From assembly GCA_044892505.1 (NCBI GenBank), contig CM097883.1, positions 38,502,001 to 38,566,000 of the forward strand: 64,000 nucleotides of DNA, written 5' to 3'. Within the stretch, counting starts at the first letter, position 1; each line of letters begins with the position of its first letter. Positions 2,585 through 44,143 of this stretch are shown in pieces. This DNA comes from Schmidtea nova. Its lineage: Eukaryota. Under the pieces are notes generated by a model. That model made no database searches, had not been told where the DNA came from, and was given only the letters and a program-made list of their open reading frames with translations. The position numbers were made by a program, and so were the translations under genes.

Positions 2585-3304
2585 TCAATCGATATAAGTG
2601 AAATCGGTGCTGTTGTAGAGATTCGTAGAGTCTGTGAGAGGTGATAATGTCAGTGAATCTTGATTATAGAATTCTGGAATCGGCTGCCAATAGGGAATCG
2701 GATAGTTTCTCGCTAAATCTTGATAGGAAAACAACGGTGGATAATAATAGTGATCACAGGCATTGTTCATGGGTGCAACTGGATAGGATTCGTGATTCCA
2801 CTCGTTTTGATCCATGGTTTCAGTAGACGCTGAAATGCTTTCCTTAGTTTCAATAGATGAACCGATGGATCGAGTATCATTCATGTCAGGTTTTGAGCGA
2901 TTTGATGAACGAGGAGATTTGTTGCGTTTTGCTCCGTCAATAAACTTTTTCTGGCGCCTCAACAAACCGCCGTTGGCAAACATTTTCTTTGCTCCTTCGT
3001 GAATCGTCCAGTAGTCTCCGCGATTTCCGGATTTCTGTTCATGGATCGGCAAAGATTTGTGACGGATACGAATGAAACAATCATTGAATGACAACGAATG
3101 TCGAATGGAATTCTGCCATTTCCGGTTATCCAACTGATAAAAGGGATAATTCGAGCTGATAAATTTATAAATGTCTGACAGTTGGCACATTCGACGGGGA
3201 GAGGAATTGATGGCAATGGTAATCATCGCAACGAAACTTAAGTTCGGTTTCTCCTCTGTTGACTGAGAATCGGTTTCATTATGGTTTCTGTTGTCGAAGG
3301 TCAT
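2585..3304 (-). CDS. Single-exon forkhead transcription factor, divergent FoxA-like (239 aa from first ATG; ORF track starts at TTG 3316)
   Basis: Winged-helix motifs KPNLSFVAMITIAINSS..LSDIYKFI..WQNSIRHSLSFNDCF..YWTIH..MFANGGLLRRQKKF. RHSLSFNDCF and RRQK are FoxA-type signatures; the subfamily is not certain. Confidence 0.88.
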   Translation of the reverse strand: MTFDNRNHNETDSQSTEEKPNLSFVAMITIAINSSPRRMCQLSDIYKFISSNYPFYQLDNRKWQNSIRHSLSFNDCFIRIRHKSLPIHEQKSGNRGDYWTIHEGAKKMFANGGLLRRQKKFIDGAKRNKSPRSSNRSKPDMNDTRSIGSSIETKESISASTETMDQNEWNHESYPVAPMNNACDHYYYPPLFSYQDLARNYPIPYWQPIPEFYNQDSLTLSPLTDSTNLYNSTDFTYID

Positions 3305-18700: not shown

Positions 18701-20070
18701 AATTTATAACTTACTAATCAACTGTCTGACTCCAATGCGTGCTTTATTAATCAATAAAATAAAAATTAACAATAAGAACTTTTATTGATATCACAACTGG
18801 TTTCACAATTTACACTGGTACAACCAATTAATAATATGAGACAATTATACAGTGCTTTATATGATACGTTTGTGAAGAATAACACTCGTGTATAATATCC
18901 GTCTAGCAATCACTAGCTACTGATTTATATTTGAAAATGGGTAACCAACTAATTGCTTTCTTTGCTTTGACTTGAAATTTGACCCAACAAACTTTTCTCA
19001 ATAAATCTCTCACAATTGTTTTCGCAACAAATTCCTGAATAAATTTCACTCAATAAATTCTCAATAAATTTCTCTCAATCATATTCTCAATCGATTTCTC
19101 AATAAATTTCTCTATAAATTTCTCTCGATAACACTTTTCTCAATAATATTTCTAATACTCTTTCCTCACACAAATTTTGTAATACCACTCGAATTTTAAT
19201 TCAACTGCGATGCTTTTTTTATAGCGCGTCAAAGTTTGCGGCACTTGAAACAAATTTGTTTTTATACTTTGCTTTTCGCCTTCTTCCACAGCTCTCGTCT
19301 TATCTCTGACAACTGTCGAAATATGCCTTGCTTTCCACTCTGTTGTTCCGACTTTTTCTCCTACCATTCCGATATCTCTGATAGGCTGTCAAAATATAAT
19401 TTTCTACCGGTTTTTTGTTTTTCGATTTCGGGATTCCTTTTGCCTTTGTACTTTTTAATTAGTGTTGGATCCACCATTTGGTCCACATTTAATATAAAAA
19501 ATAATAATAACAAGAAATAAATAAGAATAAATTAAATTAATATAATTACGAGAAGTTTCAGAAAGGATCAATTAAAAAGATAATAAAGAATATTAATTTT
19601 CTATAAAAATTTAGAAGAAAGTAAATAGGAAATGTAAAAGTGTTAAAGAAACAATGATATTTAATTGTATTTAAGGCAAAATAAAGAAATAATAAAGAAA
19701 AAGAATTACAGAATATTAAAAAGCAAAAACAACAAATTATTAGTAATTTAAAGCAAATCAATCGATTTGATTTTTAATGTAATTTATTTTTTGTGCTGAT
19801 CGGATGATCAGCTTCAAGCTGATTGGTCAGTGATCTGATCTGATCAGTATATATACTGATCCAGATTCAGATATTTTTAATGCATAAATTTTTTTCAGTG
19901 ACAAAAATTTTCTTTGTATTTGGTGAGAAGCTAATAGGTATGAGTATTTTTGTTTTATTGAATTTATAAATTTTATGATTATCTGTCATTGACCATTGTA
20001 GTTAATTGTTAATAAAATATTTTAAGATATATGATTTTTAAATTTTTGTCGAGTATAGAACTAAGCCAAG

Positions 20071-20355
20071 CTTCTTCCACTGTGAAATCAGTGGAAGGAG
20101 ATGACTCTATTTATATATATGATTTATCTTTTATTGAGCTTCTTCCATCGTGTAAGCGGTGGAAGGAGGCAACAGTATCAGTTTATATTAACAACTAACA
20201 AGTATAATTTTAGAAGTAATTATTGGGTCGAGCTTCTTCCACTGTGAAATCAGTGGAAGGAGGCAAATATATATTATCTATATACCGTATTTATAGTATA
20301 AAATTACGTATGATTTAAGGGGCTCCGTTCACCGTGCAATCGGGAACATGGAGGC
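20071..20355 (+). repeat. Four dispersed hairpin repeats in the LTR (also 44946-45230)
   Basis: CTTCTTCCACTG-TGAAAT-CAGTGGAAGGAG at 20071 and 20233; variant at 20139; degenerate copy at 20323. Confidence 0.85.
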
Positions 20356-21084
20356 ATACTGTGCCGAGTAGAAACGACTGCTCCGTACAGTTAGGCCGTC
20401 CGACCGGTGTGAAGCGCCGAGACGAGGGTAGGAATTTTATTTTTGATTTCTAACCTTATTTTTCACTGGATAGTATAGCCAGTTGAAGTTTTATTTTATA
20501 ATCGATTTAAATTTTTTGAGTTTATAGTTAAGTTGAGTTTTGATTTTAGTTTGAGACAGATATAGCTGTGATTTTATTAATCTGATTTTATATTGGAATT
20601 CTCCGAATGTTAATCTATATTTTTTGATTGTCACATCTGGGGTTTGTGGGCATAGAGCGGCAGATACACGTTTAAGAATTTGTACAAAATATAATTTTAA
20701 TAACAACATAAAAATCGATAACTCTAATAACGTAGTGATCTACTACGCAAGTAACATAGCAGCAATAGGCTATAGGTTCAAACATTCCACATAAATAATT
20801 AAATATAATTGCTTATCCTGAACCCTGTACATAGGGCAGTGGATCTTAGTTTATTTTAATAATTTTCTTATCCTGACTGCTGTATATAGCACAGGCGTAA
20901 CTGAATAAAATGCATTATGAAATAAATGTATCTGATCGCTGTACATAGCGACAGTGTTGAAAGCGTAATAGGTAAATCATTTTCTTTTCCTAAATTAACA
21001 ATTACCAATTGTCAAAAGCATGAGAATCGTTCAGATCAAGACGGTCAATTTCATGTGAATAAACCAATTTTGAATTTTAGAAAA

Positions 21085-21675
21085 ATGTCAGCCAACACAG
21101 CAACCAATCAAGCCGAATTAGACAAAACATGGAGGATAATTCGCAGCCTCGAAAAGGAAATGCTGCGAAAATCAGAGAGAATAAAAGAAGCCGATGGCAT
21201 AATCTCCAACCTAAAGAAAAGCTGGTTCAGTCCAGAACAAATGAAAACACAAATTACAAAAACTCAACGCTCACAGCGAGCTAACAGCGAATTGCAAATG
21301 GAATTAGACGCGACGAAGATGGAATTAAAGAAATGCCTAAAATCTGTAACGGCATCGTATCTAACTCAGGAGCTCAGCCAGCTCATTCGACCAATCACTT
21401 ACCAGCATTGGGCTGACGAAAAGGCGGGATGTACAAAGGGAACAAACACCGAGGAACCATCTCAGGTTCAAGCAACAACAATAGCCAGTACACCAAATAA
21501 CTCGATAAATCCAGAAGTCAAGAAGAAAAGGAAGAGCAAGATGGGAGCACGTCAGCGTCGCTGGAAGAAACAAGTTCTTCAGCAATTGGCTCAACAATCC
21601 AAAGAAATTCCAGAAATTGATTTGACCATGAATTTTGCAATATCAGATGAAGACATTACTAAATACTTTGAATAG
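21085..21675 (+). CDS. LTR-encoded ORF (196 aa from ATG 21085; track ORF from 20926): coiled coil, basic KKKRKSKMGARQRRWKK motif, acidic tail
   Basis: Open frame kept in both LTRs; ATG 21085 preceded by TTTTGAATTTTAG|AAAA. Confidence 0.6.
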   Translation: MSANTATNQAELDKTWRIIRSLEKEMLRKSERIKEADGIISNLKKSWFSPEQMKTQITKTQRSQRANSELQMELDATKMELKKCLKSVTASYLTQELSQLIRPITYQHWADEKAGCTKGTNTEEPSQVQATTIASTPNNSINPEVKKKRKSKMGARQRRWKKQVLQQLAQQSKEIPEIDLTMNFAISDEDITKYFE

Positions 21676-22290
21676 GAATTTTGTGATTTAGCTGTTTTCG
21701 CGTATTAAATAATTTTTGTTTTGTATTTATTTTATTGTAAAGTATAGAAAATAATGTGATTTATTAAAAATTTTAAAATAATTTAAAGAAAAATATAGAT
21801 TAAATTAAACTATACATTAGAATCAACAATAGGATTAACCTAAATCTAATAAACAATAGAAACATTAAAGAGATAATATATTGTAATTGATTAAAGATTA
21901 CTTGTTGACATTGTAAAGAAGGGGGCTGAAAGAAAAGTTGAGAGTTGAAAGATATTGTAAAGAAAGGGGGCTAAAGAAACATTGAAATGAAAGATAATGG
22001 ATGCGGATAGATTAAAGTTAAAGCGTAAGTCCTTCTATCGGCAGCGAGACGAACCCGTGAACATAAATAGGGAGTAGTTTTAGCAATAGAGCTCACCTGC
22101 CCATCATTGTTCAAACACCTTGCACATTTCCAACTCGATTATTACAGGGAAATGATCGAGGGTGCTCGTGTGATATGTAAGCATTTTATGTGAGGTTTTG
22201 GATGGAGGAATCCCTAGAGCGTTTAAAAATAATTATTAGTTTAATTTACTGTTTTTGTTTTAACCCAATCCGAAACCAACAACATAAATT

Positions 22291-22308
22291 TGGGGGCTCA
22301 GCCGGGAT
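22291..22308 (+). promoter_or_regulatory. Primer-binding site, tRNA-Pro-like
   Basis: TGGGGGCTCAGCCGGGAT matches the MLV-type tRNA-Pro PBS TGGGGGCTCGTCCGGGAT at 16/18 positions; it lies 9 nt downstream of the LTR end. Confidence 0.85.
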
Positions 22309-22520
22309 CAAATTGGTTTTTGTGCGGAAAATTGAATCCAACAATAACAAGGAGTTTTAAAGTACCCCTCAGCCGGGATCAAATTGGTTTTTGTGCGGAA
22401 AATTGAATCCAACAATAACAAGGAGTTTTAAAGTACCCCTCAGCCGGGATGAAAATGGTTTTTTGTGCGAAAAATTGAATCCAATAATAACCAGGAGTTT
22501 TAAAGTGCCCCTCAACCGAA
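22297..22520 (+). repeat. Three 71-72-bp tandem units beginning with the distal 12 nt of the PBS
   Basis: CTCAGCCGGGAT at 22297, 22368 and 22439; degenerate CTCAACCG at 22511. Confidence 0.9.
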
Positions 22521-22821: not shown

Positions 22822-23283
22822 ATGAACGATAAATTAAAAGAAATAGAAGAATTCTTAAACACGGAAAACAAAACATACGAGGAATTATGCGAGAAAATAA
22901 GTCGAATAAGAGAATCCGGATTCACAGAACCCATGACACAAACCGAAGAGACAACAGAGCTGATAAAAATAATGGAAAGAGTAGACAAAATAGATATAAC
23001 AACTAGATACAAGTGGTACCGAACGAGATTAGAAAATGCTGATGTAAACATAAAATGTAGACAGTTAGAACAACAATTAACTCCAACATACAACAAGTGG
23101 ACGATACAAGGAACTGAGACAGCTAAGAAATTTAAACTGTGTTACATATGTCGAGAAAGGGAGAATAAAATCATGTTTTTACCATGTGGACATTTCCGGT
23201 TTTGTGGAATCTGTGCAGCCAATTGCGACAAATGCCCGATGTGCAATCTTGAAATAGGCGAAAGAATTACTGTGTATTTATAA
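22822..23283 (+). CDS. Accessory RING-finger protein with C-terminal IAP/MDM2-type C3HC4 RING (153 aa, no BIR)
   Basis: CYICRERENKIMFLPCGHFRFCGICAANCDKCPMC..I..RITVYL at the extreme C-terminus parallels the XIAP/cIAP RING. Confidence 0.85.
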   Translation: MNDKLKEIEEFLNTENKTYEELCEKISRIRESGFTEPMTQTEETTELIKIMERVDKIDITTRYKWYRTRLENADVNIKCRQLEQQLTPTYNKWTIQGTETAKKFKLCYICRERENKIMFLPCGHFRFCGICAANCDKCPMCNLEIGERITVYL

Positions 23284-24720: not shown

Positions 24721-25152
24721 ATATAATGAATAGTGATAAAATGATAATTGAGTCAGGAGAACTCAAGGGAATTAAAGCGTTTGAGCGACAAATTAAATTG
24801 GGAGACTGAGGGAAAAGTAATGAATTTATTTGATAACGATAGATAATTATTACGACCATATAGATAATTGTTACCAGTGAATAGATAATTTAAATAGACT
24901 TAAATAAAGGGGAAACCGGGAATGGGGAAACAATGGAAACCCAATAATGAGGAATAAAAGCGCAACGATAACAATGATGTATCGTTGAAGTGACTTTTTA
25001 ATTTAGATATACGGAACAGAACAAGTCAAACAACCAACCAATCAATCAGAATACGATAACAGAGAAACAGAAAAATTGATAAATTAAAGAAAAGTAAACC
25101 GAGATCAAGAGCAGTTAAAAATCAAGAAGTTAATAATTCACAAAGAAATAAA

Positions 25153-28100
25153 TTGAGATCAAGAGCAGTTAGTGCTACAATCGAAAAAGTTGATAATTCA
25201 CAGAGAAATAAATCGAAACAAAGAGCAACCAGTGCTACAAAGAAAACAAATCCTAAAGGAAGTAAATCAAGAAGAGTAATAGTAGAAAAGTCAAAAGTCG
25301 AAAACAGTAAATTTTCTAAAACTAACGAAAGTGAAACAGAAGAAAGTGCAAGTGAAACCTACGATAATTATAATAATACGGAAGCATCAGATAACGAGTC
25401 AATAAACACAGAAGAAGTAGAAGCAGAAATTGATAATAATTCAAACGAAACGAATAACGAGCATACTAGTGAAACAAGAGGAAACGAGAGTAAAACGACA
25501 CAAGACAGCGGAATCGAAATGAACGAACATAAAGAGGAAATTAAAGATAAATTTACTGGAGAACCATTCAATGGAGATGCCAGCAAGTTAGAAACGTTTT
25601 TAAAAGAATTTGGTATATTTGTAGAAATGTGTAAATGGAAACCAGAAACGATAAGAAGCAGAATTCAGTTATATTTAAAAGACAGTGCGTTAGACTTATA
25701 TTTAGAAGCTAAAAATTCAGATGATCAACTTGATAGTTGGGAAAAGATAAAGAATTTTTTCCAGCAAACGTTTGGAATAAATAAAGTATTAAATGAAGCG
25801 TTTACAGAATTTTCAATGAGGAAACAAAAAGTTAATGAATCAAATGCAGCATATGCAAGTGAATTAAAGAAATTGGCTAAATTGGCATTTAATCAAAATA
25901 GTCCAATGAGTCCAGAATTAATGGCAGCAATTTTTGTGGGGGGATTGAGAAGACCCGATATAAGAGCACAAGTTGGATGCCAAGGTTGTAAAACAATAGA
26001 TGAAGCGTTGGAAATTGCTAACAGATTCGAATTACATATGATCGGAAGTGAAGGAAGAATTTACCTAGCAATGGATACGACACAAAACGAACAAGCAATA
26101 AAGATAAATAACCATATTCCGAACTCACAGCAATTAAATCGACCACCACCTCAAAGGAGAAATGAGGGAAATAAAATACAAAATTACGGAAACCAAAATA
26201 ATTATAGTACGCAAGGACAAACAAAGCAATGTCAAACCTGTGGAAAGTTAGGACATTGGCAACAAGAATGTTTCGCGAATTTAAATTGTAAAAAGTGTGG
26301 AAGAAAAGGACATGCAGAAAATAGATGTTACCAAAGATCATGTTATAACTGTGGACAATCAGGTCATATGGCGATGAACTGCCAACAACAAAACAACCAA
26401 CAAAGGAATTGGTCGAACAACGGAAATCGACAAAATTATACGAATCAACAGAGTAACGGAAACCGTCAGAATTTTGAAAATCAACAGAGTAATTATAACC
26501 AGAACAAAAGTACCACCAAAGAGATACATTTATTACAAGAAGTTCAGAGATTGACAGAGTTAATAAACAATACACCGAGAGGAAATCAACAAACGAATCA
26601 ACAACAAATGAATATGATGAGAAAAGTGGAAAGTGAAAATGAACGACTAAACCGAGAAAGTCAAGCACGACATGCTCAAGAATGGGCAAGAATACAAAGA
26701 GAAGACGAACAGAAACGACAAGAAAGAGAACGACAACCATTGAGAATTAATATGATGAGAGCAGCGAATCAAACAAGAGATAACAAGGAAGATATTGAAC
26801 CAGAAACAAATCAGATAAAACCAAATTTAGTAGATGAAGAAAACCAAAAAGAAATAATACAAGAAAACGAAGAAGTTATTAAACAAAAAAGGATGTTGGT
26901 AGTCATGCCAAACGATCATGTATTTCAATTTGAATATGATGAAAAAGAGGAAGTGGGAGTGTTAATTAATAAAGTAAACAAGACGATTCCGGGAACGACG
27001 AAACTACCCCGAGAAGCAATTTTACAGACGGAAGACGATGCAGCAATAAAATTGAAACCAACCGACATATGGAAAGATTTAGGAGTACCAAGGAATAAAA
27101 TGAAAGTCACAGTTATCCAAGAAATAGAAGAAAATAACGATGAAGAGAAATCAAAACCAGTAACAAAAGTCAAAAGTAGAGCATTGAAGATATTTGAAGA
27201 GAGAATCAAACAGAGAAAAGCAATGGAGATAGAAAAACGAAGAGGCCAAATAGAAGAATCAGAAAACAGTGACAAAAAAGAAGAGATACCACCAAAAAAT
27301 GTACCAGATAAAGTAGAACAGACAGCACATATAAATATGTTAAGAAACTTAACTAGAGAATTTTCAGATGTAGAAAGTGACAGTGATGTCAGTAGTTTAG
27401 CAGGGGATATGCTAAAAGAACCAGAAAAGGAAGACAACAAGATAGAAGTAGCGAAGATGCCAGAAAATGTACAAATAAAAGAAGATGAAATTCAGAAACT
27501 ATTAGATAATGCGTTAGAAGTGATTTATAACGAAGAATTTATTGATAAGAAGCGATATCGAAAATTTATAAGAGCAGTATTCCGAACGAACTATAAAGAA
27601 CGATTACAAAGTCGTGAAATAGAGATACTATCAGGATACGTCGTCAAACTATTAGATGAACCACTCCACGAATATATAATTTTAATAGAAATAAACGAAT
27701 GTTCACCAAGAATTTGGATCAAATCTCCATGCACGAACGAAATTTATCGATGGGTAGAAGACAGACTAGGAAGTTCGTATAAAAACAAATTTATATATTC
27801 AGGAAACGAACTTGTAAGACGAGCAACGCATTTGGTAGAAACAGGCATATGGCCAGGAGAGATAACAACATTATCAATATGCGACAATAAGAAAGAGGAA
27901 AATTTACAAGAAATCGCAAAGGAAGCAAATATGTGTTTTGAGATGAGAATTAAACCTCAGTTAGTAGAAAGGAAAGAAAGAATTCTTAGAGAAAATTTAA
28001 ATTCACTAATAGAACAAATTATTCAACAAATCGACAAGAATAGAGAAGAGTTAACAAAAACTGAATATGAGAAATTAAAACAATGCATCGAAAATATACG

Positions 28101-31100
28101 AGATACCAGCCATACGAGACATTCGTCATACAAGACTTGGAAAGTGATCGCGAAAATGGGAAAAGCGATGTTTAAACGAGGAGAAATAGGAGATTTGAAA
28201 ATCAAAGTGAAATTACCAAACGAGGACACAAAAGAAATTGAAGTAATCGCGGATTGCACAATAGAAGAATTAGTTGATGTTATCAATGAGACTTTATTAC
28301 AACGGGAAAAAGAAGACGAATTAGAAGACGATATCATCATAAAATATAATGAACACGTACTAGGGGATCATGATGAGAGACGATTATATAAAATCGGTAT
28401 ATGGGATAATTACCAAACAATTCACGTTATCAGAATGGATGATACGTCAAGAGAAACACCAAAAGACGAAAAAAGGAGACAAGAACGTCGAAGAGAAGTG
28501 ATGTACAAACTAAGACAAATAATAGAAATTTATCGAAGATGGCAGATACAGCCAGAAGGGGAAAATGTATTAGGAGAATTAAACTTCAACGAACGCCGAT
28601 TAACACCAGTAGAGAAACACTGGGATGTTAAAGAGAAATGCTGGAAAGCAAAAGGAGGTATATATGAAGAAGAATTTAGACCAGAAATGGAAGATAAATA
28701 TGAACCAGAAATCAGAAGAGTTTGTATGGTGACAAGAAAAGTCATGCCAACAGATTTGGATGGACCAGAAACCGCAGCAATATGGTTAGAAACGCAAAGA
28801 CGAAAAGCTGACGAACTTATTGAATTACTAAGAGGAAATGTACAAGGTAAAAGGCGAACGATCAAAGGATTAGCCGAATTCTTTGTAGCAGGCGGCGAAG
28901 ATATAATTAGTTTACGAAAAGTAGCAAAGGCAGTAACAGAATATAAACGAGTTAACGAGTGGTGCCCAGAACAATTAGACAATGTAATCAAGAAATGGAG
29001 AAACCAGGAAAACTCCCAAGAACCACCACAGAAAATACATTTAAGGATAATATATCCAGATCGAGAAAAAGAAGAACTTTGGGTAAGATTAACTGAAAAG
29101 ATTCGGGATGTTAAAAAGAGATTAAAATATGAACCACCATTTCATCTACAACATCAAGGACGATCACTAGAAAACGATATGGAAATTTGGATAACGCCAG
29201 CACAGTTAGAACTGGCAAATACGCTAACAGTAGACGCAATAGCAGGTCAACCATTAAAACTTAAAGAGAAAAGAGTAAGAGAAAGTGAAGATACTCAGAA
29301 TCTAAAGAAAACGATGCAGATAACGCCAGGAACAAGCGCAAGGCAGTACGAAACAACATCAATTAAAATCCAAGAGAGAACTCGACCACAACCATACGAT
29401 ACAGAAGAAATCCTAACAGACAGTGATGACATGCTAGAAGAATTAGCAAAATTGACAAAAGAAAAAGGCAATAATATTTTCGAAAGAGTACAAGAGTTAC
29501 CCACAACGTCACAAGCAATCAATACCCAAGATGAAGTTGAGCAAGAAATAGAAATAGAAGAAGTGAACGAAATCTCTGAAGAAGAAGCAAGAGGAGCAAA
29601 TACAGAAAACGAACGATTTACACAAGAAATGGAAAAATGGTGGGAACAGAGAAATAATGAACCAAGAGATGTTACAGAAGAAACTGGACGAGAAACCAGA
29701 TTAATTGAAACAGGTACAACAATGGATAGACGACCTAGAGGTAGACCAAAGACAGATCCAGCCAACGTAATCAACAAAACAAAAGAAGAAAGGAGACAAG
29801 AGAAATGGGAATTATGTTTAAAGAAACTCAACAAAATAGCAGAAGCAAAAGACCAGGAAATAACGCAAAAATGTCAAGGCGAAGGATGGATATCAAAAAC
29901 ACTAATGGAAATACTGGCGATAATTGATCCAGAATTGAAAAAATGGTGGAGAATAAACGAAATAAGCGACAAGGCTAAAGCATTACATAGCGCAATCGCA
30001 CCAATCTTACCCGAACTGATAAAAGAGAAGACAAAATCAAGCCATTTAGATTGGCAAGGGACCACAACGTTGATAAAGAGGTTAACTGAAGATGCAGAAA
30101 ACGATAATAAATATGTGATAGCAATTGCGTATACAATTTATAACTTATTAACATTGAGTAGAGGTAATCCAAAATCTATGGCAATAGAGAAACATATCAA
30201 AAATACGGCAAGCATCATAGCAAAAGAAATAGAACCATACGTCATCAGTAAAGGAGGATGGGAAACATTTGTTAAAACGAATCAAAGAAACAGTCAAGCA
30301 AAGAATATGAAAAAGAAATTTGAAGAAATTTTAGGAGAATTAGAAAAAGAAAAGTCAGGAACAGGAAGTGGAAAATCTTCACTAAACCTGAATTCAATCA
30401 TAATGATGATATTAATATGGCTAATTAGCGTTGAAGGAGCAACGGCGTTCGAAGTATTTGATTGCGACCAGATGGCATTAGGAGAAAAATATTCATTAAG
30501 AGGAACCGAACAATGCAAAGATGCAACTCCAACAGAATTAAAAGTATTACATAAAGAACAAATATACCACATATATCAGGAAGCCGACTTAATAAAGACA
30601 ACAGTTAATGAATGTAAAATATATAAAACAAGATTTGCTTTTTATTGTGGACATCGCCACTACTCTGCAATCGTAATGCCAGGAACGGAAAGAGAAGCGA
30701 TAATGTTACAAGGAGAAGATTGCAATAAATTGTTCAAACATGGAGAAGTCGAAACAAGAGATCGAATAAAGATAAGAGGAAAAGCTGGAGTAATACTACA
30801 ACAAACATATTATGTAGCAGGAGCTATCACAGGAGGAGAAGGTTACTGTCAAGGAGCAACATACCCAATATTTGGAGTACCAGCAACTAACATGGTAGTA
30901 ATCGACACATATACGGTAGAATTAAAAGCGTATGAAGCATATTTTGACCCAGCAACAGGAGAAATGAAGACGTTATCAATGTGCAAAATTGAAGCCAGTA
31001 CTTGTCAAACCGGTATGTCAACTTTAACATACAGAGCAAAAGCAAATGAATGCCAATTACAATTATTAAAGGAAGCAGAGTTCGACGAGGTACAAGGAAA

Positions 31101-34100
31101 AATCTTTCAGGAAGAAGATGATGATGAAGTAGCAAGAGGAAAACGTCTACAGGAGACAGTAAAAGGAGAGAAACCGTTCACAACTAAAGTACAAGAAAAA
31201 GAGGTGAGGATGAGAGAGACGCCAACAGTATTGGTTACATCAAACGCAAATATAGGAATGAGGTTTGTAAAAGGAAAACCGGCATTAAAATGTGGTGTTT
31301 CTATGTTAGAAACAAATTATCCAGGTATTTATGTATCAAGACAAGCAGCACCAAATGCAAAACCCAAGATAGACACTACAGACATCAAATTGCACGTATA
31401 TTTAAATAACAAATTGGATTTTTTATTTCATAAAGGTCAAGCATCAATGGAGAAAATATACTACGATCTCATTAACAACGATTGTATATTGAACAGAGAA
31501 ATATTAAAGACGAAATTAGCGGTAGCAATCACAAACCCGGATAGTGCTATGCCATTATTACCACTTAACGAAGGTCATTTTGGAAGAGTAGTTGGAGAAG
31601 TTATGTATGTATATATATGCCAAAAGACACAAGCAAACCTAGCAACAACGACCAGAATACGACAAGGACAATGTACCAACGAATTAGAAATTGAATATAA
31701 AGGGAAAATAAGATATGTACAACCAGTGACAAGAATCATTAACCCAGTTAGTTTTGAACCAAACCCTTTCAATTGCAGTAATGCATACGGACCATTATAT
31801 CAGAAACCAGACGGGAATTGGGTCATGTTTCCGTCAAGATCAGAAGTACAACCACCTAGAGAATTTGAATTGATGCAACTTTCAAAAGGACGAAAATTTT
31901 CCAATATAGATGTAATTAACGGAGGAATTTACAGTGCAAAAGATCTTGAAGCAGCACGACAAAATATATTATTTCCAGCTAGAAGAGAAGCAGTATTATC
32001 TAGCATTGTAACGATAACAGGAGGAACAAGTTATCAAGGAGGACCAAATTATGAATTATTACTGTCACCAGCACACTTTAGGAAAGCAACAGAGAATATG
32101 ATGAAAGCAATGTGGGGACGATTTTTAATTTTCGGACAAATGATGGCCGGAATATTAGGTGTAATTTTAATCATACAAATAATACGAGTGATAATCACAC
32201 AAATGCTAGCATGTTTCGATATTTATAAAAGAGAAAAGAAAGTTAATTGGAAATTAATAGCAGGATTTTTACCATTTTTAGCAAAAACGATGGTGTTACA
32301 TGGTCACTCCAAAGATATTCATAGAATAAAAAGATTATTAAAAATACTGGCAAAAATGAAAGGAACAGATGAAGACGTGGGAAGAAAATTCAAAAAGATA
32401 ATGACAGATGAACAAGCGAGATTACAATTAAAAAGCGAAAGAAAAGGATTATGGGAAAGAATAAGAGGAGATAAAACTCAAGATGATTCCAGTGATGACG
32501 ATGATAACAATGACGACTGTGAAGGAGGGCAAAGGTATAGAAACCAAGCACCGCAATATAGCGACAAGAATCCAACAGAAGCATGGAAATGTCACGCACC
32601 TCCACCAACAATGTACCAAGAACCATTACAGGTATCAGGACACAGAGCAATGCAAATGATGCCAATGACAACTTTATATCCAATTATACCAGAAGATTAT
32701 AAACTTAGACGATGTAGAAGTATGGATCCGCAAGACGATTCACTCACAATTGCAGTCATGTCATCAAATACAGGACCAGTATTAACTACAACCATAGAAA
32801 TAAATGGAAAAGAAATAGAAGCGATGATAGATACAGGAGCAAACATTTCGGCGATAGATATCAAATGGATACCGCAAGAACAAAGACAAGAAATTGAAAG
32901 AACAAATGTTCATGTAATAGCATGTAGTAAAGAGATTGTTGAAGTTGCAGGAAGATGGTGGGTGAAAATACGACACCAAAATATAGAAATCGAAACGTAT
33001 GTAGCCGTAATACCAGCTTTAAGCGTACCATGTATAATCGGAACAGATTTAATGCCAACACTACTTAAAGAAATAATCATCGATCTTGGAACAATGAGAT
33101 TAAAAGACAGAACAGGGAAAATATGTGCTATGGAAGCAAAAGTAATAAGCTCAAAACAAATGATAATACCAGCCAGAAAAGAGAAAATATGTTATGTCAA
33201 AATAGACCCTACAATAGAAGGAGACATGGTTTTCGAGCCAAGTAAGAGATTCGAGAAAAGGAAATCATTGCAAATGGCAAGAGGCTTAGTTAATATAAAC
33301 AACAACGGAGAAATCCCAGTAAATGTAATAAATTTTGATGAAGAAGATAAGATAATTTATGAAAACGAAAGATTAGGCAAACTAACTCCTATGATAGACA
33401 TCGAAATACCAACAAAAAGGGGAGAAAAAGCGGAAGAACCAATATGGAATATTGACAGTAAATTGTTAAATGAGGATCAAAAGAACCAATTAGAGAAACT
33501 TCTAACAGAATATAAAGATATATTCGCAGCATCTGATTTAGACCTAGGAACATGCGATGTTACAGTACACACGATACCACTATTAGACGAAACACCGATA
33601 GCATTGAGACCCTACAAATTGGCAGAAGCACAGAAAGCCGTAGCAGAGGCAGAAGTGCAGAAAATGTTAGACGCAGAAGTTATTGAACCCAGTTGTTCAC
33701 CGTGGCAATTTCCAGTGGTAATGGTGAAGAAGAAAGATGGAACGCAAAGATTTTGTATCGATTATAGAAGATTAAATGCAGTAACGAAACGAGATACATA
33801 CCCATTACCAGACATTAACGAGATGTTGTTGACATTACAAGGAGCAGCCTATTTCACATCATTAGATTTAAAAAGCGGTTACTGGCAAATAAAAGTAAAG
33901 GAGGAAGATAAGGAGAAAACTGCTTTTACTATTGGAAGAGACTTATATCAGTTCAGGAAAATGCCATTCGGATTAACCAATGCACCAGCATCATTTCAGC
34001 GATGTATGAATTTTGTGACGCATGGAATAAAACAGTGCATGGTTTACATTGATGACCTATTAATTTATTCAAGCACATTCGAACAACATATACAAGATAT

Positions 34101-37100
34101 GAGAGACGTATTCGTTAGACTCAGAGAATGGAAATTAAAACTAAAACCATCAAAATGCGATTGGGCAAAAGAAAAAGTAACTTTCTTAGGACACATAGTG
34201 TCGGCACAAGGGAAAGAACCCGATCCCAGAAATATTGAAAAGGTTAAAGAATGTCCAGCACCAAAAACGATAACACAAATACAAGAATTCCTTGGTTTAT
34301 GTGGATATTACAGGAAATTTATAAAGGATTATGCAGGAATTGCAAAACCCATGCAAGAATTAGTAAAGAAAGATGTAACGTTTATATGGGGACAAGAACA
34401 ACAAACAGCGTTTAAAACGCTAAGAGATAAATTGATAACCGCACCAATATTAGTTCATCCAGACTTCAAGAAACCATTTTTACTAGCAACAGACGCAAGT
34501 GGATACGCTGCAGGAGCAGTACTAGGACAATATGATGATGAAGGGAAAGAAAGAGTAATCGGATATTACAGTAGAACGTTTAAAAAGCATGAGAAGAATT
34601 ATTCAGTAACAGAAAGAGAAGCATTAGCAATAATATTGGCTATAAAACACTTCAAATATTTATTATGGGGACATGTAATATGTATAACTACAGACCATCA
34701 ACCGCTTGTATGGTTAGGACAGCATAAAGAAACATCCAGTAGACTAATGAGATGGGCAATGCAACTGCAAGAGTACTCACCAGATATAAAATTTAAATCA
34801 GGAAGAGCAAATTCAAACGCAGACTGTATGTCAAGATTAACTTTCCCAGAATTAATAGACCCAGAGGTACAAAGAATATGCGTATTGATAGCGGAAGATT
34901 TAGATTTCAGCGAATTAAAGAAGGACCAACAAGAAGACAAAGAATTAGGACTAATAATAGAATTTATGAAATCACGGAATTTAGACGTATTCAAAGATAA
35001 TGAGGAATTAACAGAACATGTGAAAAAATATCAGCATCGGTATATAATAGAGAAAGGATGGCTGTTAATACAAGATGGAGAAAAGAGGTTAATGTGCTTA
35101 CCAGAAAATAGACGAAAGGAAATAATAACGCAATATCACGATGGAAAACTCGGAGGACATATGTCAAGCCAGAAAACAATCAATCGTATGAGACAGAAAT
35201 ACCATTGGCCGACAATGGAAGAAGATGTTAAAGAATGGATAAAAAACTGTCTAACATGTGCAACTAGAAAAGATAGCGGTAAGAAATGGAAAAATCCTCT
35301 AAAACCTATGCCAATACCAGCAGAACCAATGACAACCATCGCGATGGATGTAATAGGACCGTTACCAGAAAGCTTGAACGGAAACCAATACATACTAGTA
35401 ATAACAGATTATTTAACGAAATTTCCAGAAGCATTCGCAATGGAAGACCAAAAAGCAAAAACAGTAGCAAAAATCTTGGTAGAAGAGATATGTTGTCGAT
35501 ACGGAACGCCTAAACAAATATTGACAGACCAAGGAACGAATTTCATGAGCGAAGTATTCGACGAAGTAACAAATTATTTTAGAATAGCGAAATTAAGAAC
35601 GTCACCCTATCACCCACAAACTAATGGACAAACAGAACGATTTAACGGCACATTGATTAGAATGCTATCGAATTACGTATGTAAACATCAGACTGATTGG
35701 GATGAGTATATAAAACTATGTCTAATGGCTTATAGAATGTCGATACATGCAGCCACAAAATTAAGCCCATTCAAACTAATGTATGGAAGAGAATGTAACA
35801 TACCTATTGATTTAGAATACCAACCACCATTGTCTCAATACATGGAAGAAGACGACTATGTTACCAAGTTCAAAGAGAGAATGCAGGAAATATGGAAGAC
35901 AGCGGAACTAAATATAAAATTTTACCAAGAAAGTTATAAAGATTTGCACGACCAAAAGAAAAACGTGAAGACAAACGATTTAAAACCAGGAGACTGGGTA
36001 ATGATTGAAACCCCAGAAATAATACCAGGAACAGTAAAGAAATTACAAAGACCGGGAAAAGGCCCGTATGAAGTGATATACAGAAACGAAGATAATGTCA
36101 AAGTAAAACTTGTAAATCGACCATTAGTACGACCAATATACGTGAATACATGTAGATGCAAGAAAGTGCCAAAAACAATAACAATGATACCGGAAGAGAG
36201 AATCATGACGAGATCACAAACCATCAGAATAAATATGCTCAGAGCGGAAGAAATTAACACAACTAGTCAAGTAGACAGTGAGAAAATAGATGTTGACAAA
36301 GAGATCGTACGAAAAGCCAAAGAAATAAACGAAAGATGGGAAATCAGACAAGAAAAAGACGTATTATGGGATATACGACAAATAATCAGTGATTACGCAC
36401 GAGGATGCCCAACCAAACCAATTATAATAGAATTACTAAAGAAAATACCAGAGATACTCGTATTACAAGATACAGGAGGTGCAACTGCACTACACAATGC
36501 CATAAGTTGGGGTAAAACGGAAAAGGTAAAAGAATTCTTGAAAATAGCAAAAGAAACGAATCAAAATCTAGACATTGTAAATCGAGAATTAGAAACGCCA
36601 ATGATGACAGCAACCCTAAGCTTAGCAGATAAAGAAATAGTAGATATGCTGATTAACGCAGAATTCAACTGGACAGCTCGAGATAGAAGAGGAAACACAG
36701 TTTTAAACCATGCAATAATGAGTGAAAATCAAATGATACTAAAACATATAACAACCAACCTCACATGGGAAATCGAAGAATTAATCAAAGGAGAAATTAT
36801 GAAAGAAGCGATTCGGAAGGGAAACACTAAAACAATATGGAAACTAATACAATGGAAATGGCCGAATAATAAAACATGGGTATTAGATATAAACAAAGAA
36901 TTTAGCGAAGGACAGAATGCACTATTGAGATACTTGTTAGAGTTTACGTGCGATCAGAGAACGATGTTAGCACTAATAAATAGAGGAAAAATAAATATTA
37001 GTAAAAACGAAGAGGAATATAAACTAGAAGTTGAAAAGAAAGCTTTATTCAGGAAAATTTGGGTATGGTGTCAAAAACAAATACGCAAAGACATAAGCTA

Positions 37101-40100
37101 CAAAAATATAAATGATTTCCAAGAAAAGTATAAGATAATAATAAAGGAATACAAGAAGCTAGTGGAGATATTAAACGATCCAGAAAAATTTAATCAAGCG
37201 ATAAATCAGAAAGAAGAAGAAAGTAAAAGGATACTCACACCATTGTTCAACGCGAAGATAGATTACCAAGAAAGATTGGATGCAATACACCAAAAAGCAA
37301 AGGAACTATTACCAGAATTCAAAAATACTAAATACGCCTTGGAAATACTTGGCGCGATAGTAGAGAAAGTACACGCGTACGCGAAAGGAATATATAATGG
37401 AAACGATATAATAATTATAAAAAGAGAAATGCCAGTTGCGTTCTTATTAACTAAAGAAAGAATAATGCCGATTCATAGAGCATTGAGAGCAGGAAAAGAC
37501 GGTAAAGTAATCGAAATCGCAAGAGTAATGCATCAATGTGGATGTGATATGAATATGATAGACGAAAAAGGAGACACCCTCATGGTATACGCAGCAAGAG
37601 CAAAAACAAAAGTCAAAGTATTAGAAGAATTATATAAAGCAGGCGCAGGATTAATCGGAAAAACTGTCAAAGACAACTCAATATTAGACGTGACATTATT
37701 AGGTCCAAACTGGGAAATGTTGAATTTCATTAAAACGATAACAAACCAGGAAGAGATAGACTATTTAACAGAAACCGTAAAAGGACCAAGCGTATTGACA
37801 ATGATGCAAAACATCAAATTGACAGAAGAAGTATTAAACTGGAAAATACCAAATACAAACAAACCAGCATTTAAAGTTAACAAGTTTATGGAGAATAATC
37901 GAAATTGGTGTATCCAAAGCGCACTAATAACTTATATATGGCCCGAAATTGTAGAAATTTTCATGAGAAGAGAAGATCTGAGATTTACAAACAAGCCCAA
38001 AGAAACGGAAAAGATGGTCAAATGGAAAGAATTGATGAAAACACACCTTCAAAGTTGGATAAAAGCCAAGAAAGAAATTATACAGTATCAATTAGACAAC
38101 AAAAAGATACCCGAAGATATAGAATTCCAAGAATTTGAAGCAAGTAACTTAACATCATTATATTATGCAAAACTAATAGAAACCAGTAATGTCGAGGACG
38201 ACATTTTTAACGAGCCAGGGAGAGATAATAATACTGACAATGATGATGACGATGAAGAAAACAATGACGACGAGAGAAATAAAGACGATGATGATGATGA
38301 AAACAGTCACGGAAATCCAGATAACCACGAACAAACCAATAAAGAAGACGAGAACCAAGAGAGAAATACAAAGAAACAAGAATCCAAAGAACCAAGAGAA
38401 GACAACCCTAAAAATAATCATGAAAAGAAAGGAACAAGTTACAGAAGGAATCCATTATTCAGACCAGAAGTATTAATGTTCGCAATAATCATAACACTTA
38501 TGGGACAATGTGAAGCAACGAAACAAGAGATATCAGTAGAAATGGAAGTACCAATACAAAAAGCATCAACACAGATAATGAATTCAAAGGATATTGAACA
38601 AGTATGTTGGGTCAAAGAGAACGAAATTCTCGGAGATAACAACCTATTACGATGTATAATACCAAACCCCGAGCGAAAAACTATAATAATAGACGAAATG
38701 GACATGGAAACATGGTACAGAATATGTACTATCAGAAAACCCAAGGACGAAAAATCACACAAAACAGTTACATGCCAAGTATACAAGACACCCAAAGTTC
38801 GATATGAGTTCGCCAATGGAATAGACCTTCCAGGACCATTTTATTTTAAAATAACAAGAGAACCAGCATCAAGAAAAGTCTTACAACAACTAAGAACCAA
38901 GATAACAACACCAAGTATAAGGAATACAACGGATAAACCAGAACCAAAAAGACGAACGAAACAAACCACAAGAGTAATCTATAATTCCAAGTTGTTATGT
39001 ATAGCACTTATTATGACAATACTGAAGCGATTGGAAGAAGGGATAGAAATGGATACAATGACATTAATAGACATGGAAGAGACACGAATGACAAATCAAA
39101 AATGTTGGGTTAGAAACGATGAAAAATTAGAATTAAAGGAATCAAGAGAAATTCAAAAATTGGAAGCGAGTAAAACGAACAAAGTAATCAAGATAATAAA
39201 GATAAAAACAGACAGAATTCATAAACTATGTTTATTGGAAAAAGAGAGAAACAAGAAAGGAATAACCAATTGTAAAACATTCCAAGCAGGGAAAATAATA
39301 ACGTTTGCAAGAAAAATGGGGAAAAGAAACAAACAAAATTTCCAGAAATTAACCATAACGTTAGAAATAACGGGAATAGAACAAAATGTAAACGGAGTAT
39401 GCTGGAGAAAATACGAGAAAGAAACGAATAAACATAAATCATCACAATGTCAAACAATCAGAGGAACAACTGCAGTGCAAATAAAAAGCTTAGAAAGAAA
39501 TCAAACGTATGAAATATGCCTAGTAAAGGAAAATGATCAAATAACGAAAGAAGATTTAGAATGCAGAATATACAAAGCACCGAACAGAGTAAAAACCATT
39601 AAAGCAATACGAAAGAATAAAAGACAACAAAAACCGAAGCATACCACTACCGAAAGTCAAACAGAACCAGAGAGGAAAACCTCAGCAACACTTATACTTT
39701 GGAAACTAGATGACAAAACAGTAGAAATATGTTGGACAATGATCAAGAAATATGAAGAAAGACAACCACAACAATGCGAAAAGATGAACAAAGAAGAGGA
39801 GATCAGAATTCAGAACCTACAATTGGACAAACAATACGAAATATGCGCAATAGAAAAGGCAGATAAATTTGGAAACCAGCAAGAGAAATGTGGAAACTAC
39901 TATACACCGACAAATACAACGATCAAAGGAAGAATCAAGAAACTAACTTTCGGAGAATTGAATCAAACAACGAAACAAATGGAAAACGAGGAAACAATAA
40001 TAGATTCTTATGCACAATGGAAACCAGAAAAAGTAATCCAGGAAGTCAAAAGGAAACAACAAGAACGACAACAATTGGAACTCAAATTGAAAGGACAATA

Positions 40101-40529: not shown

Positions 40530-40865
40530 ATGAATGTACAAGGAGAAACAACCGAAATGACTTTGACTATGCGATGGAAAGCACAATGTGAAACGTTAGT
40601 TCGATCAATTAATGCACTACAGAATCAATTGGTAGAGAAGCAAAATATATTAGCAGATTGTTACAACAATATCTTTGAGCAGTTACATAAAATAGAAGAG
40701 CAACAGAGAATAATAACAGAACTAACCAGAGAGAATCAAAGATTGAGACAAACGATGGAAATAAATCAACTAACAAGAAGAGATGAATCAGAAGGTCAAT
40801 GGCTAGATTGGGTAATAAATGGATTAGAGAATGGTATAGAACCAGATTCAACGAGCGAACCATAG
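40530..40865 (+). CDS. Accessory small coiled-coil protein (111 aa)
   Basis: ATG preceded by TATTTTAG|AAA; heptad-like composition. Confidence 0.6.
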   Translation: MNVQGETTEMTLTMRWKAQCETLVRSINALQNQLVEKQNILADCYNNIFEQLHKIEEQQRIITELTRENQRLRQTMEINQLTRRDESEGQWLDWVINGLENGIEPDSTSEP

Positions 40866-40961
40866 TCAAATTGTAGCGGAAAATTGTATATATGTAAAAA
40901 TAAAACTCTAGAAAAATCAAAAACAAAGAACAAATCAATGTATGTATATATTATTGTAGAA

Positions 40962-42296
40962 ATGGATAAAGAGGAACGAGCAGTCGAGATTTTGAGAGCA
41001 GCAAACAGAAATTGGAATAAGAGATTTGTATGTGGATATTGTAATAATTTATTACGGAAACCAAAGCAAACCGCCTGTGGATGTAGATTATGCACTAGAT
41101 GTGTACAAATGTTAGAGTTAAAAGGAATAACAGAATGTTCAGAATGTAAAGAAGGACAAATAGTATTAGACGAAACGAGACCAGATAGAGCAACTCAGAG
41201 AGAAATCATGAGCATATTAATTGAATGTATAAATCCACCGTGCATATGGCAAGGACAAATCAGCGAAATTGAAAATCATATAGAAAATTGTGAAGAAAAG
41301 AGAAGCGAATGTGAAAAGTGTAAAGAAACGATAATTTTAAAAGACAAAGAGAAACACAGAGATGAATGCAAAGAGGAAGAAATCGCATGTGAATATTGCG
41401 AAATTCGAGAAACAAGGAGAAAAATTGAAGAGGAGCACATCAATATAAAAGAAGAGAAAATATGCGAACAGTATGTAGGAGTGTTCCCAAACAAATGTGA
41501 AATTACCGAAGAAGTGAAATTACGAGAACATTGGGAAAAGTGTACAGAAATACCAAGAGAATGTCCTTACAACAGATATGGATGCAAAGAAAAGAAGTCT
41601 CAACAAACGATGAAACAACATTTAGAAACAGAAGCAATCAATCATATTGAAATGACAGACAGAACAATTCAGAAATTAGAAAAGGAAGTAGAATCTCATA
41701 AAATAATGATGAACCTATTATTAGAAACGAGAGAACAGGTTGAATTAACCCGAGGAAGGATGGAAAAGAAAATAATATATAACAAGTTAATATATAACAA
41801 GTTAATACAAGAAATTGATGAGAAAAAAGATTTACCAATAGCACCTTATGTATGGAAATTAACGGATTTCCGAAATAAATTGGAAGATGCACGAAGCTGC
41901 AAGAAAACTGCGGTACTAAGCCCACCATTTTACTTATGGAAAAACGGGGCTAAAGTGAGATTGAAAGTATATCCAAACGGAGATGGGAAAAGTAATGGAA
42001 AACACGTATCGATATTTTTTGCGTTTTGCAAAGGAGAATATGACGATTTAATCGATTGGCCGATAGGAGTAGGAGTAATGATAAAAATCAGGGGTTTAAA
42101 CGAAACCATAGAAAAGAGATTCACGACAGAAAAAGGAGCAGTTACCAGTAACAGACCAACAGAAGAATGTGGATTAGCAAGTGGAGAGCCACACTTTGTA
42201 TTACAAAGCAAGATATGGGGATTATTGTATGAGGACACCTTATACATAGAAATGGAAAGGAACGAGAAGGCAGATAGAAAAGGATGGTTGGCGTAG
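40962..42296 (+). CDS. Captured full-length TRAF-like protein (RING, TRAF Zn fingers, coiled coil, MATH); 444 aa from ATG 40962
   Basis: CGYC..KPKQTACGCRLCTRC..CSEC; CINPPCIWQG..ENHIENC; ECPYNRYGC; YVWKLTDF..LSPPFY..VYPNGDG..HVSIFF..KGEYDDLIDWP. Confidence 0.92.
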   Translation: MDKEERAVEILRAANRNWNKRFVCGYCNNLLRKPKQTACGCRLCTRCVQMLELKGITECSECKEGQIVLDETRPDRATQREIMSILIECINPPCIWQGQISEIENHIENCEEKRSECEKCKETIILKDKEKHRDECKEEEIACEYCEIRETRRKIEEEHINIKEEKICEQYVGVFPNKCEITEEVKLREHWEKCTEIPRECPYNRYGCKEKKSQQTMKQHLETEAINHIEMTDRTIQKLEKEVESHKIMMNLLLETREQVELTRGRMEKKIIYNKLIYNKLIQEIDEKKDLPIAPYVWKLTDFRNKLEDARSCKKTAVLSPPFYLWKNGAKVRLKVYPNGDGKSNGKHVSIFFAFCKGEYDDLIDWPIGVGVMIKIRGLNETIEKRFTTEKGAVTSNRPTEECGLASGEPHFVLQSKIWGLLYEDTLYIEMERNEKADRKGWLA

Positions 42297-42401
42297 CAAG
42301 AGAAAATGATCGTGTAAATAAACTGTACAAAACAATATAAAATGATAAATAAACAAAAATAATAAAAGTAGTTTGATTGAAAATATTTGTAATTATAGAA
42401 A

Positions 42402-43578: not shown

Positions 43579-44143
43579 ATGAAGAAGCTCGCAATACTGA
43601 TAATCCTAAACGTAATCGAGATCACCCAACAAAGAGAAGACCGTCCGATATCAAAAGAAAACCTACAAGTCTTACCCGATAAAATCTATAAAGAAATAGA
43701 TAATCTATTTAAAAGAAACAGCTAAAGAAATATCTCAAATTCAATTGTCAACAGCACCTAACCCAGTATCAACGCAACAAACCCTGTGCAAAATCAATAA
43801 CAAATTAGAGAAGATTCGAAAAACCCTAAAAGAAAGTAAAGAAACTATAAAGAATTTACATCGAGCAGAAATTCAATACCAAGAAAGATGGATCGTTGCG
43901 ATTATAATCGTATTAACAATTAGTACAACAACCTGCGCAATTACCATTCTCATCGCAGTATATAGAATAAAGATCCTAAAACAAAAACAATCGATCATCA
44001 ATCAAACAACAGCATACGATGACAATGCCCGAAGACAAATGAGAAATCAGTTCAAAAGAATACGAACCCAATACGAGTTACCAGCAATTCCACAGAACCA
44101 GTCCAATCCAGTGCGAGTTATGAACTATTTGTATAAACCATAA
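43579..44143 (+). CDS. Small type-I membrane protein, split by a 1-nt frameshift in the A4 run at 43711-43714
   Basis: ATG 43579 gives MKKLAILIILNVIEITQQ..LFK. Removing one A joins it to ETAKEISQIQL and the track ORF 43745-44143, which has TM WIVAIIIVLTISTTTCAITILIAVY. Confidence 0.55.

Follow-up and report, generated by a model that had tools for sequence, protein, structure and literature searches.

The long terminal repeat (LTR) of a giant Burro-like gypsy element in Schmidtea nova carries two hairpin arrays, A and B, and an open reading frame (ORF) for a 196-aa protein. It is very probable that array A folds as sense-strand RNA with fixed UGNRA/GNRA-type loops and that the LTR ORF is expressed as an accessory gene. 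On balance, we favour a start of transcription near 19950, with both arrays in the 5' leader before the first splice acceptor and the row of cassettes cut into separate mRNAs. A clearly more tentative proposal is that the 196-aa protein, encoded by the first cassette, reads the hairpins and protects or exports the whole RNA, as a Rev-like RNA-fate switch. All coordinates are those of the window, which is the whole stretch of 64,000 nt analysed.

A giant Burro-like gypsy element

The element is an intact, very recent LTR insertion of retrovirus-like type. It is 27,694 bp long (27.7 kb), with an internal region of 22,056 bp, and is flanked by a target-site duplication of 4 bp, TTAG. The 5' LTR (19463–22281, + strand, with TG...CA ends) and the 3' LTR (44338–47156, + strand) are direct repeats of 2,819 bp which, by self-comparison, have 2 differences. 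The 3' copy contains the same arrays (A1 at 44946, array B at about 45690–45830) and the same ORF (45960–46550). A primer-binding-site-like sequence at 22291–22309 (+ strand), with a presumed likeness to tRNA-Pro, precedes tandem repeats of 71 bp in which its 3' part recurs; tandem repeats pervade the element, with 25 rows. No tRNA genes were detected.

A single ORF (25519–40407, + strand) encodes a polyprotein of 4,962 aa composed of Gag with CCHC motifs, Ubl-like, BCL2-like, Env, PR, dUTPase-like, RT, RH, IN and ankyrin segments. The Env fusion glycoprotein, of mononegavirus-like type (PF24664, E 1e-70), is N-terminal of PR, RT, RH and IN, and the ankyrin segment matches Ank_2 (E 1e-9). The Ubl-like (E 0.005) and dUTPase-like (E 0.09) segments are below the cut-offs and stand at the expected positions, as does the BCL2-like segment, for which all 37 PDB matches are Bcl-xL (E 0.08–0.26, below the cut-off). 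The accessory genes include an ORF for an IAP-type RING finger (22822–23283, + strand) and three ORFs at 40530–43505 (+ strand), of 111 aa, 444–452 aa (TRAF/MATH; MATH, E 1.5e-20) and 367 aa. There is no BIR domain in the nine element proteins scanned. Among 120 listed relatives, at least 13 Gag-Env-Pol proteins align over env and pol (47–52% in pol).

The element is a Burro-like gypsy, a new member of a known group of giant elements. The likeness to Burro1-4 rests on layout and domain order, as described in PMC6431247. Shared with Burro/GYPSM1 are the giant single ORF (4,962 aa here, 4,873–5,140 aa in Burro), the position of env in frame between gag and protease, the order of the candidate Ubl-, BCL2- and dUTPase-like segments, the ankyrin, TRAF/MATH and RING functions, the accessory ORFs and the tandem repeats (PMC6431247), together with an internal region of more than 20 kb and one polyprotein in the range of about 4,900–5,100 aa. 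In contrast to Burro, the element described here measures 27.7 kb with 2.8-kb LTRs, its TRAF/MATH domain is encoded by a separate ORF downstream of the polyprotein, and its RING occurs without BIR. Since the BIR (B-IAP of Burro1) is absent, the element is not Burro1 itself, and assignment to the Burro-like kind still fits. The accessible part of PMC6431247 does not mention an LTR-encoded ORF, a hairpin array or cassette signals for Burro, and those of PMC8532177, PMC13465017 and PMC11410931 contain no description of them either; an earlier account of the LTR ORF may exist in the primary Burro papers, Grohme 2018 and Lee 2026.

Hairpin arrays of the LTR

Array A begins with three hairpins on the + strand: A1 (20071–20100, loop UGAAAU), A2 (20139–20168, loop UGUAAG) and A3 (20233–20262, identical in sequence to A1). 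Each has 12 contiguous pairs, including one G-U pair common to all three stems. The initial annotation had counted a fourth 12-bp stem at 20323; this hairpin, A4 (20323–20355, + strand, loop UGCAAU), is diverged and bulged, with 3+4+4 pairs and a folding z of -1.8. Two bulged hairpins 3' of it had been overlooked: A5 (20358–20391, + strand; 13 pairs with one mismatch and two to three G-U) and A6 (20395–20429, + strand). A5 and A6 form a G+C-rich structured block with z -3.7 on the + strand and -0.8 on the - strand. No further copies of the array A hairpin occur in the window beyond the six LTR copies.

The three 12-bp hairpins A1–A3 are real and beyond chance. They are the sole stems of at least 12 bp in the LTR, and dinucleotide shuffles of the LTR gave one such stem in 26 of 2000 cases and two in 0 of 2000, in a test that treats A1–A3 as independent, tandem duplication making the copies non-independent. 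The folding segment with A1–A2 has the lowest z among 248 across the element, and the region 20040–20440 reaches z -6.6 on the + strand and -4.8 on the - strand. The difference between + and - folding exceeds that of shuffled sequences, both for 20060–20440 and for 20318–20440 (2 of 100 shuffles each). All non-Watson-Crick pairs in the stems of A1–A3 are G-U on the + strand. In a context of 1.15 kb the hairpins are predicted to form with open loops (closing-pair P 0.77–1.00).

The loops of A1–A4 (UGAAA, UGUAA, UGAAA and UGCAA) vary only at the N of UGNRA/GNRA, and by sequence match all four place a UGNRA loop on a G-C-closed stem. UGNRA is the consensus of the lone-pair triloop or T-loop motif (PMC2258182), and GNRA-like loops are targets of the arginine-rich N peptides (PMC12550061).

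Covariation, to which the earlier reading appealed, is weak in array A. A2 does hold the changes described, a two-sided one (U-A to C-G) and a wobble (C-G to U-G), relative to A1 and A3. Since A1 and A3 share the same 30-mer, covariation comes down to A2 and to a single pair of events. The probability that three stem substitutions all preserve pairing by chance is 0.015–0.23, the value being set by the transition bias. In a shuffle test the covariation score was reached in 16 of 500 cases and the count of two-sided pairs in 113 of 500. The claim of structure at the RNA level is borne out for the sense strand, chiefly by the G-U strand bias and the loop sequence and less by covariation.

A neutral origin would see in the array a chance palindrome multiplied by tandem duplication during reverse transcription. 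The abundance of tandem repeats in the element and the identity of A1 and A3 suit such an origin, as does a comparison that covers one family copy. We regard it as very unlikely: hairpin cores are retained while spacers have diverged, loops vary only at free positions, and two independent arrays, together with A5–A6, have pair-preserving structure.

At the gathering score, Rfam covariance models had no match in the window; relaxing the limit to E 10 brought two, both at chance level. The hairpins were judged by eye as possible ribozyme, IRE or snRNA structures; these readings have no support from Rfam and were rejected. Bacterial or archaeal relatives of the hairpin were also rejected, the 17 single matches to a degenerate pattern (about 4 expected at uniform composition) not extending beyond 29 nt and being attributable to chance.

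Array B, which had also been overlooked, is composed of three bulged hairpins (20816–20954, + strand) with a CUG/CAG base, an upper stem of 4–5 bp and a GUAYAU loop. In the upper stem, both partners are replaced in two of the four pairs, and all 12 cells pair. The compensatory changes between B1 and B2 have P 0.01–0.02 in simulation, and the covariation score is matched in 46 of 500 shuffles. Taken singly, the hairpins have z of only -0.8 to -1.7, and their folding is strand-neutral (79 of 100 shuffles).

All three array B hairpins include UGUAYAUA, the Pumilio-element consensus. Within the window the 10-mer core is confined to the two LTRs, with 6 matches against 0.12 expected. The published Pumilio response element is UGUANAUW (PMC5758885); here an exact UGUANAUA occurs in each of the three B hairpins as well as downstream of four stops. 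The array B copies differ from that element in lying upstream of an ORF and in being partly caged in a compensatory stem, the 8-mer being about 45% paired in the predicted fold. Judging from these motifs, a host Pumilio protein probably reads array B.

Candidate transcription start, cassettes and proposed RNA processing

A strand-symmetric cluster of CTGAT/ATCAG palindromes at 19796–19870 is a candidate promoter or enhancer at the DNA level. The density of these 5-mers is 7 per 100 nt, where the mean is 0.21, and the two strands fold as DNA with z of -6.2 and -6.6. The cluster includes what we take to be a CCAAT box at 19822 and a TATA-like run at 19848. Downstream, a candidate initiator (Inr) and an AATAAA at 20011 with a U-rich tail span 19949–20016 (+ strand), and are weak candidates for the start and the R region. 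With the planarian Inr matrix of PMC10558129, for which the background is about 1 match per 2 kb, the match at 19949 scores 9.3 of 14.7 bits; its occurrence is at background frequency. The + strand matches of at least 5 bits in the LTR are at 19949, 22218 and 22254, and only that at 19949 has a poly(A) signal after it within the LTR, either AATAAA at 20011 or ATTAAA at 21704.

These two are the sole poly(A) signals of the LTR with U-rich tails. The second (21704–21750, + strand) may be where the LTR ORF is polyadenylated, or else an alternative end of R. As judged with the planarian signal variants (PMC5068929), the LTR has no poly(A) signal of this type beyond 22085, so a late start would leave no R region. 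We lean towards a start near 19950, from which the hairpins would lie in R or in a long U5, about 120–1000 nt downstream. If R extends to 21704, or if the start is late, the hairpins would also, or only, be at the 3' ends of transcripts.

The arrays might instead act at the DNA level, as inverted repeats in U3 bound by a dimeric factor, perhaps the LTR protein itself as a transactivator resembling foamy-virus Tas, with an acidic tail. The strand-neutral folding of array B agrees with this, as do the further Inr matches late in the LTR (22218, 22254), and the coiled helices, basic region and acidic C-terminal helix modelled for the protein would also suit a transcription factor. Perfect palindromes can, moreover, arise through template switching, without selection on RNA. 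We nevertheless consider DNA-level sites unlikely, given the G-U strand bias of array A and the missing poly(A) signal after 22085; the changes in the array B stems alter the sequence yet preserve pairing, whereas a protein that reads sequence needs no pairing.

Flatworms use cis-splicing or spliced-leader trans-splicing, with the acceptor motif UUNYAG (PMC12582326). The LTR ORF has such a motif, TTTTAG, at 21075–21080 (+ strand), 4 nt before its ATG. Acceptor and Pumilio statistics were computed with published motifs. UUNYAG stands 2–4 nt before the first or second ATG in four of the five accessory ORFs, the LTR ORF included, whereas outside the element 12 of 534 ATGs have it (P ~2e-5); the RING ORF has a one-base variant that fails this test. 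A Pumilio element follows four of seven stops at 16–20 nt (P ~8e-7). Both signals occur in each of the three ORFs of 40530–43505, the acceptor motif ahead of the ATG and the Pumilio-type 8-mer 17–20 nt past the stop. The 8-mers after stops are not in hairpins (folding z +1.5 to -0.7). We rejected the idea that UGUA serves as the CFIm poly(A) signal: planarians do without this signal (PMC5068929), so a PUF protein is the likelier reader. The accessory genes look like an operon-like row that would be resolved by cis- or trans-splicing.

Reading by the host could extend to both arrays, with Pumilio on array B, an unknown host protein or a steric structure on array A that controls splicing, the AATAAA at 20011 or translation, and the LTR protein as an unrelated, NLS-bearing nuclear effector. 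The exact Pumilio elements of array B, their recurrence after four of seven stops and the likelier PUF reader in planarians (PMC5068929) favour this explanation. So do the distance of 60 nt from the AATAAA to the start of A1 and the RING, TRAF and BCL2-like accessory proteins, which aim at host pathways. Against it are the absence of Rfam family matches, the partial pairing of the array B 8-mer, which would hinder Pumilio, and the Arg-Trp second half of the basic motif of the LTR protein, which it leaves without explanation. Reading by host proteins throughout is possible, at a rather low probability.

Arrays A and B are both upstream of the first acceptor (21080), so processing would strip the hairpins from the 5' end. 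This would also be expected of a packaging or dimerisation signal (psi-like), in which array A is read by the zinc knuckles of Gag or through RNA-RNA loop-receptor contacts while the LTR protein acts elsewhere. Retroviral psi typically contains stable hairpins in tandem, with loops rich in purines, and usually lies downstream of the primer site. Here the array is inside the LTR, about 1.9–2.2 kb upstream of that site, and the A1–A3 loops have no self-complementarity, two features that speak against a psi-like role. The CCHC knuckles of Gag are present, and tertiary RNA contacts are frequent for UGNRA/GNRA loops (PMC2258182, PMC12550061). We hold this explanation to be doubtful as a whole, even if, in terms of anatomy, a packaging signal and reading by host proteins are about as good a fit as a Rev/RRE-like system. 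Owing to the predicted 5' stripping by processing, an RRE- or psi-like signal fits better than TAR.

The LTR-encoded protein and its possible role

The 196-aa ORF announced inside the LTR is real. It extends over 21085–21675 (+ strand) within a frame of 249 codons that is open from 20926, and its length was reached in 0 of 300 LTR shuffles. The alternative start at 20926, giving 249 aa, has no acceptor motif and T-rich third positions and overlaps hairpin B3; 21085 is favoured.

The protein is not, as had been proposed, Arg-rich: Arg makes up 11 of its 196 residues (5.6%), against 5.9% in the polyprotein. Its basic motif, KKKRKSKMGARQRRWKK (residues 146–162, encoded at 21520–21570, + strand), contains 7 Lys and 4 Arg, arranged as an NLS-type cluster and a short Arg cluster. 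With a net charge of +11 it is the most basic 17-mer among the element ORFs, the next having +8. Its first half fits a monopartite NLS pattern, which in KKKRKSKMGARQRRWKK we take to be a plain one. A single-sequence model (mean pLDDT 69, pTM 0.24) predicts helices at residues 3–45 and 50–115 (pLDDT 70–97), disorder at 115–147, a basic segment (146–162) running into a helix at 153–173 that bears the Arg-Trp half, and an acidic C-terminal helix at 188–195. Helix 1 is hydrophobic at 8 of 12 a/d positions. Residues 175–184 match what we take to be NES class 1d, such matches occurring by chance 6.2 times per 196 aa in the polyprotein.

No homologue of the protein was found among 340 candidates of similar length and 3,792 longer ones. 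Two matches in a search of 1.84 billion representatives (E 3e-4 and 6e-4) were rejected as repetitive proteins aligned to the low-complexity linker only. There is no Pfam match, no PDB sequence match and no paralogue among the element ORFs or 122 further proteins. A fold search of BFVD and PDB gave 0 matches at E up to 0.001 with a weak query model (pTM 0.24). The basic peptide searched against PDB retrieved no Rev, Tat or N peptide, the best match being a ribosomal protein at E 0.23. The resemblance to the Rev ARM noted earlier is thus superficial, the motif being Lys-rich, containing a plain NLS and matching nothing in Pfam, PDB or sequence searches; sequence comparison places the protein outside the Rev and Tat families. 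It is probably nuclear, to judge from the NLS-type cluster. A role as a nucleic-acid-binding regulator is plausible from the model, in which long helices at the N-terminus are followed by a basic helix and then by a tail that is NES-like or acidic, in the same order as in Rev. This order of helices, basic motif and tail is common among nuclear proteins.

The initial annotation had presented the LTR as a candidate switch of either the Tat/TAR or the Rev/RRE type, and its second half, concerned with RNA fate, fits better. Tat has a Cys-rich activation domain, and TAR is a single bulged hairpin at the capped 5' end. A system of this type, in which the protein would act on a nascent promoter-proximal hairpin and free paused polymerase, shares with the LTR a basic motif, an acidic tail, hairpins that may be transcribed early and, in array B, a TAR-like outline of bulge, stem and hexaloop. 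It is highly improbable, however: the LTR protein holds 2 Cys in 196 aa, with no Cys-rich domain and no Tat or other Pfam match, and its gene is in the LTR, while A1–A3 are unbulged, repeated and away from the cap, the candidate start being about 120 nt from A1 and about 870 nt from array B.

The likeness to HIV Rev/RRE, HERV-K Rec/RcRE, MMTV Rem and HTLV Rex/RxRE (PMC5568270, PMC10746203) is closer in layout, the small accessory protein here being probably made from processed RNA. The modelled order of coiled helices for a putative oligomer region, basic motif and C-terminal NES-like match at chance frequency points in the same direction (PMC5568270), as does an RNA in the LTR that is structured over about 360 nt and comparable to a response element by position and folding. 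Unlike these systems, the LTR protein has no homology to Rev, Rex, Rec or Rem by Pfam, PDB sequence or fold, its motif is Lys-rich, its putative target is a row of simple capped hairpins and not a branched structure with internal loops, and the host element is a gypsy and not a retrovirus, export being a prediction by analogy. With the phage N peptide/boxB system (PMC12550061) the LTR has in common short hairpins whose loops are GNRA-like, and a basic peptide that is a candidate helix; it differs in the eukaryotic setting, the internal Lys-rich motif and the lack of a sequence match. The zinc knuckles of Gag and a basic frame upstream of Gag are alternative readers, and as such count against the LTR protein in this role.

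The mechanism that we propose for the Rev-like switch begins with transcription near 19950, which would place arrays A and B in the 5' leader before the acceptor at 21080. The cassettes, each formed by an acceptor, an ATG, an ORF, a stop and a Pumilio element, would be split into mRNAs by cis-splicing or spliced-leader trans-splicing. As processing would take away the 5' hairpin copy, the hairpins would label the unprocessed, genome-length RNA; an RNA of 25 kb with many acceptors must stay whole, and the strippable hairpins are so placed as to mark it. The first cassette would yield the 196-aa nuclear protein, which would oligomerize through its long helices and bind the repeated hairpins by its basic helix. 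Its C-terminal tail would then shield the RNA from splicing and early polyadenylation or route it to export, array B being read by a host Pumilio protein. The outcome would be an early-to-late switch, Rev/RRE-like in its working and aimed at hairpins that resemble boxB, with homology to neither system. That a gypsy-lineage endogenous invertebrate virus has independently evolved the regulation of a complex retrovirus, with (trans-)spliced cassettes and an orphan protein that acts on a boxB/T-loop-like array to protect and export the genome RNA, is a still more speculative conclusion and, at present, an improbable one.

Planarian genomes are rich in Burro-like elements, of which one has been reported to aid regeneration (cited in PMC13465017). 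In the accessible literature we found no account of how a 25-kb RNA with at least six internal acceptors and many poly(A)-like signals stays full-length yet yields accessory mRNAs. The LTR described here offers testable parts for such an account in its two hairpin arrays, its cassette grammar and the basic orphan protein. By analogy with HIV Rev, the arrays and the LTR protein may govern the processing of the element RNA. Rev-like analogues outside retroviruses are rare (PMC10746203); if the protein does read the hairpins, this would be a convergent Rev-like switch in a gypsy element, outside Retroviridae. If it does not, the cassette and Pumilio signals would still describe how the element expresses its anti-apoptotic cargo.

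Repeat unit of array A and other features of the LTR

The motif TATRATTT is found at 20030, 20118, 20203 and 20309, once for each of the four hairpins of array A in the 5′ LTR (A1–A4, at 20071, 20139, 20233 and 20323) and 14–41 nt 5′ of it. Because it stands before every one of them, the repeat unit of the array is larger than the hairpin alone. Further upstream, a dense, strand-symmetric cluster of CTGAT/ATCAG palindromes with a CCAAT box (19796–19870; also 44671–44745) is a candidate enhancer or promoter. Splice-like sites are present near 19899–19955 (acceptor-like TTTTCAG at 19893, donor-like sites at 19922 and 19938) together with a U-rich stretch, and this interval may contain a leader exon of 40 nt, which splicing might link to the acceptors of the accessory cassettes.

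The 5′ and 3′ LTRs differ only at 21127 and 22069. The first difference alters residue 15 of the 196-aa protein predicted from the LTR ORF (21085–21675), which is Thr in the 5′ copy and Ala in the 3′ copy. The frequency of A at third codon positions is 0.41 in this ORF, against 0.52–0.55 in the other ORFs of the element, a lower value that may reflect a separate origin or another kind of constraint.

Internal region and related polyproteins

Three 71-bp tandem repeats occupy 22297–22518, and every copy opens with the 3′ portion of the sequence that resembles a primer-binding site; this site itself lies 9 nt away from the LTR end. The Gag frame has no stop for 153 codons 5′ of its first ATG (25060–25518); this open stretch, basic and then acidic, contains 60-nt repeats. 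Among the 120 relatives listed, 13 polyproteins share the env-before-pol layout (P0059, P0060, P0063, P0065–P0069, P0071, P0072 and P0074–P0076; 2800–4100 aa, pol identity 47–52%), and the relatives of this architecture therefore extend beyond the named Burro families.

Upstream of the 3′ LTR, two partial, overlapping frames are located at 43579–44143: one starts with a hydrophobic leader and the other (147 codons) includes a membrane-spanning stretch. Neither has a Pfam match above the cut-off. The region is possibly a broken gene for a small membrane protein.

Sequences outside the element

A single-exon forkhead-domain ORF (2585–3304, minus strand; PF00250, E = 6e-29) lies 16 kb from the element. 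On the plus strand, a frame of 744 codons (50956–53190) and two frames of 200 and 247 codons with a single stop between them (57250–58596) are G+C-rich for the window and have no match in Pfam; our guess is that they are probably DNA-transposon genes. A large block of inverted and tandem repeats (60617–61707) is close to an assembly gap.

Cassette layout of the accessory ORFs

The accessory ORFs of the element form operon-like cassettes (21075–43530), in which a splice-acceptor motif precedes the ATG by 2–4 nt and a Pumilio-type 8-mer follows 16–20 nt 3′ of the stop. This organization is perhaps the sturdier novelty of the element.
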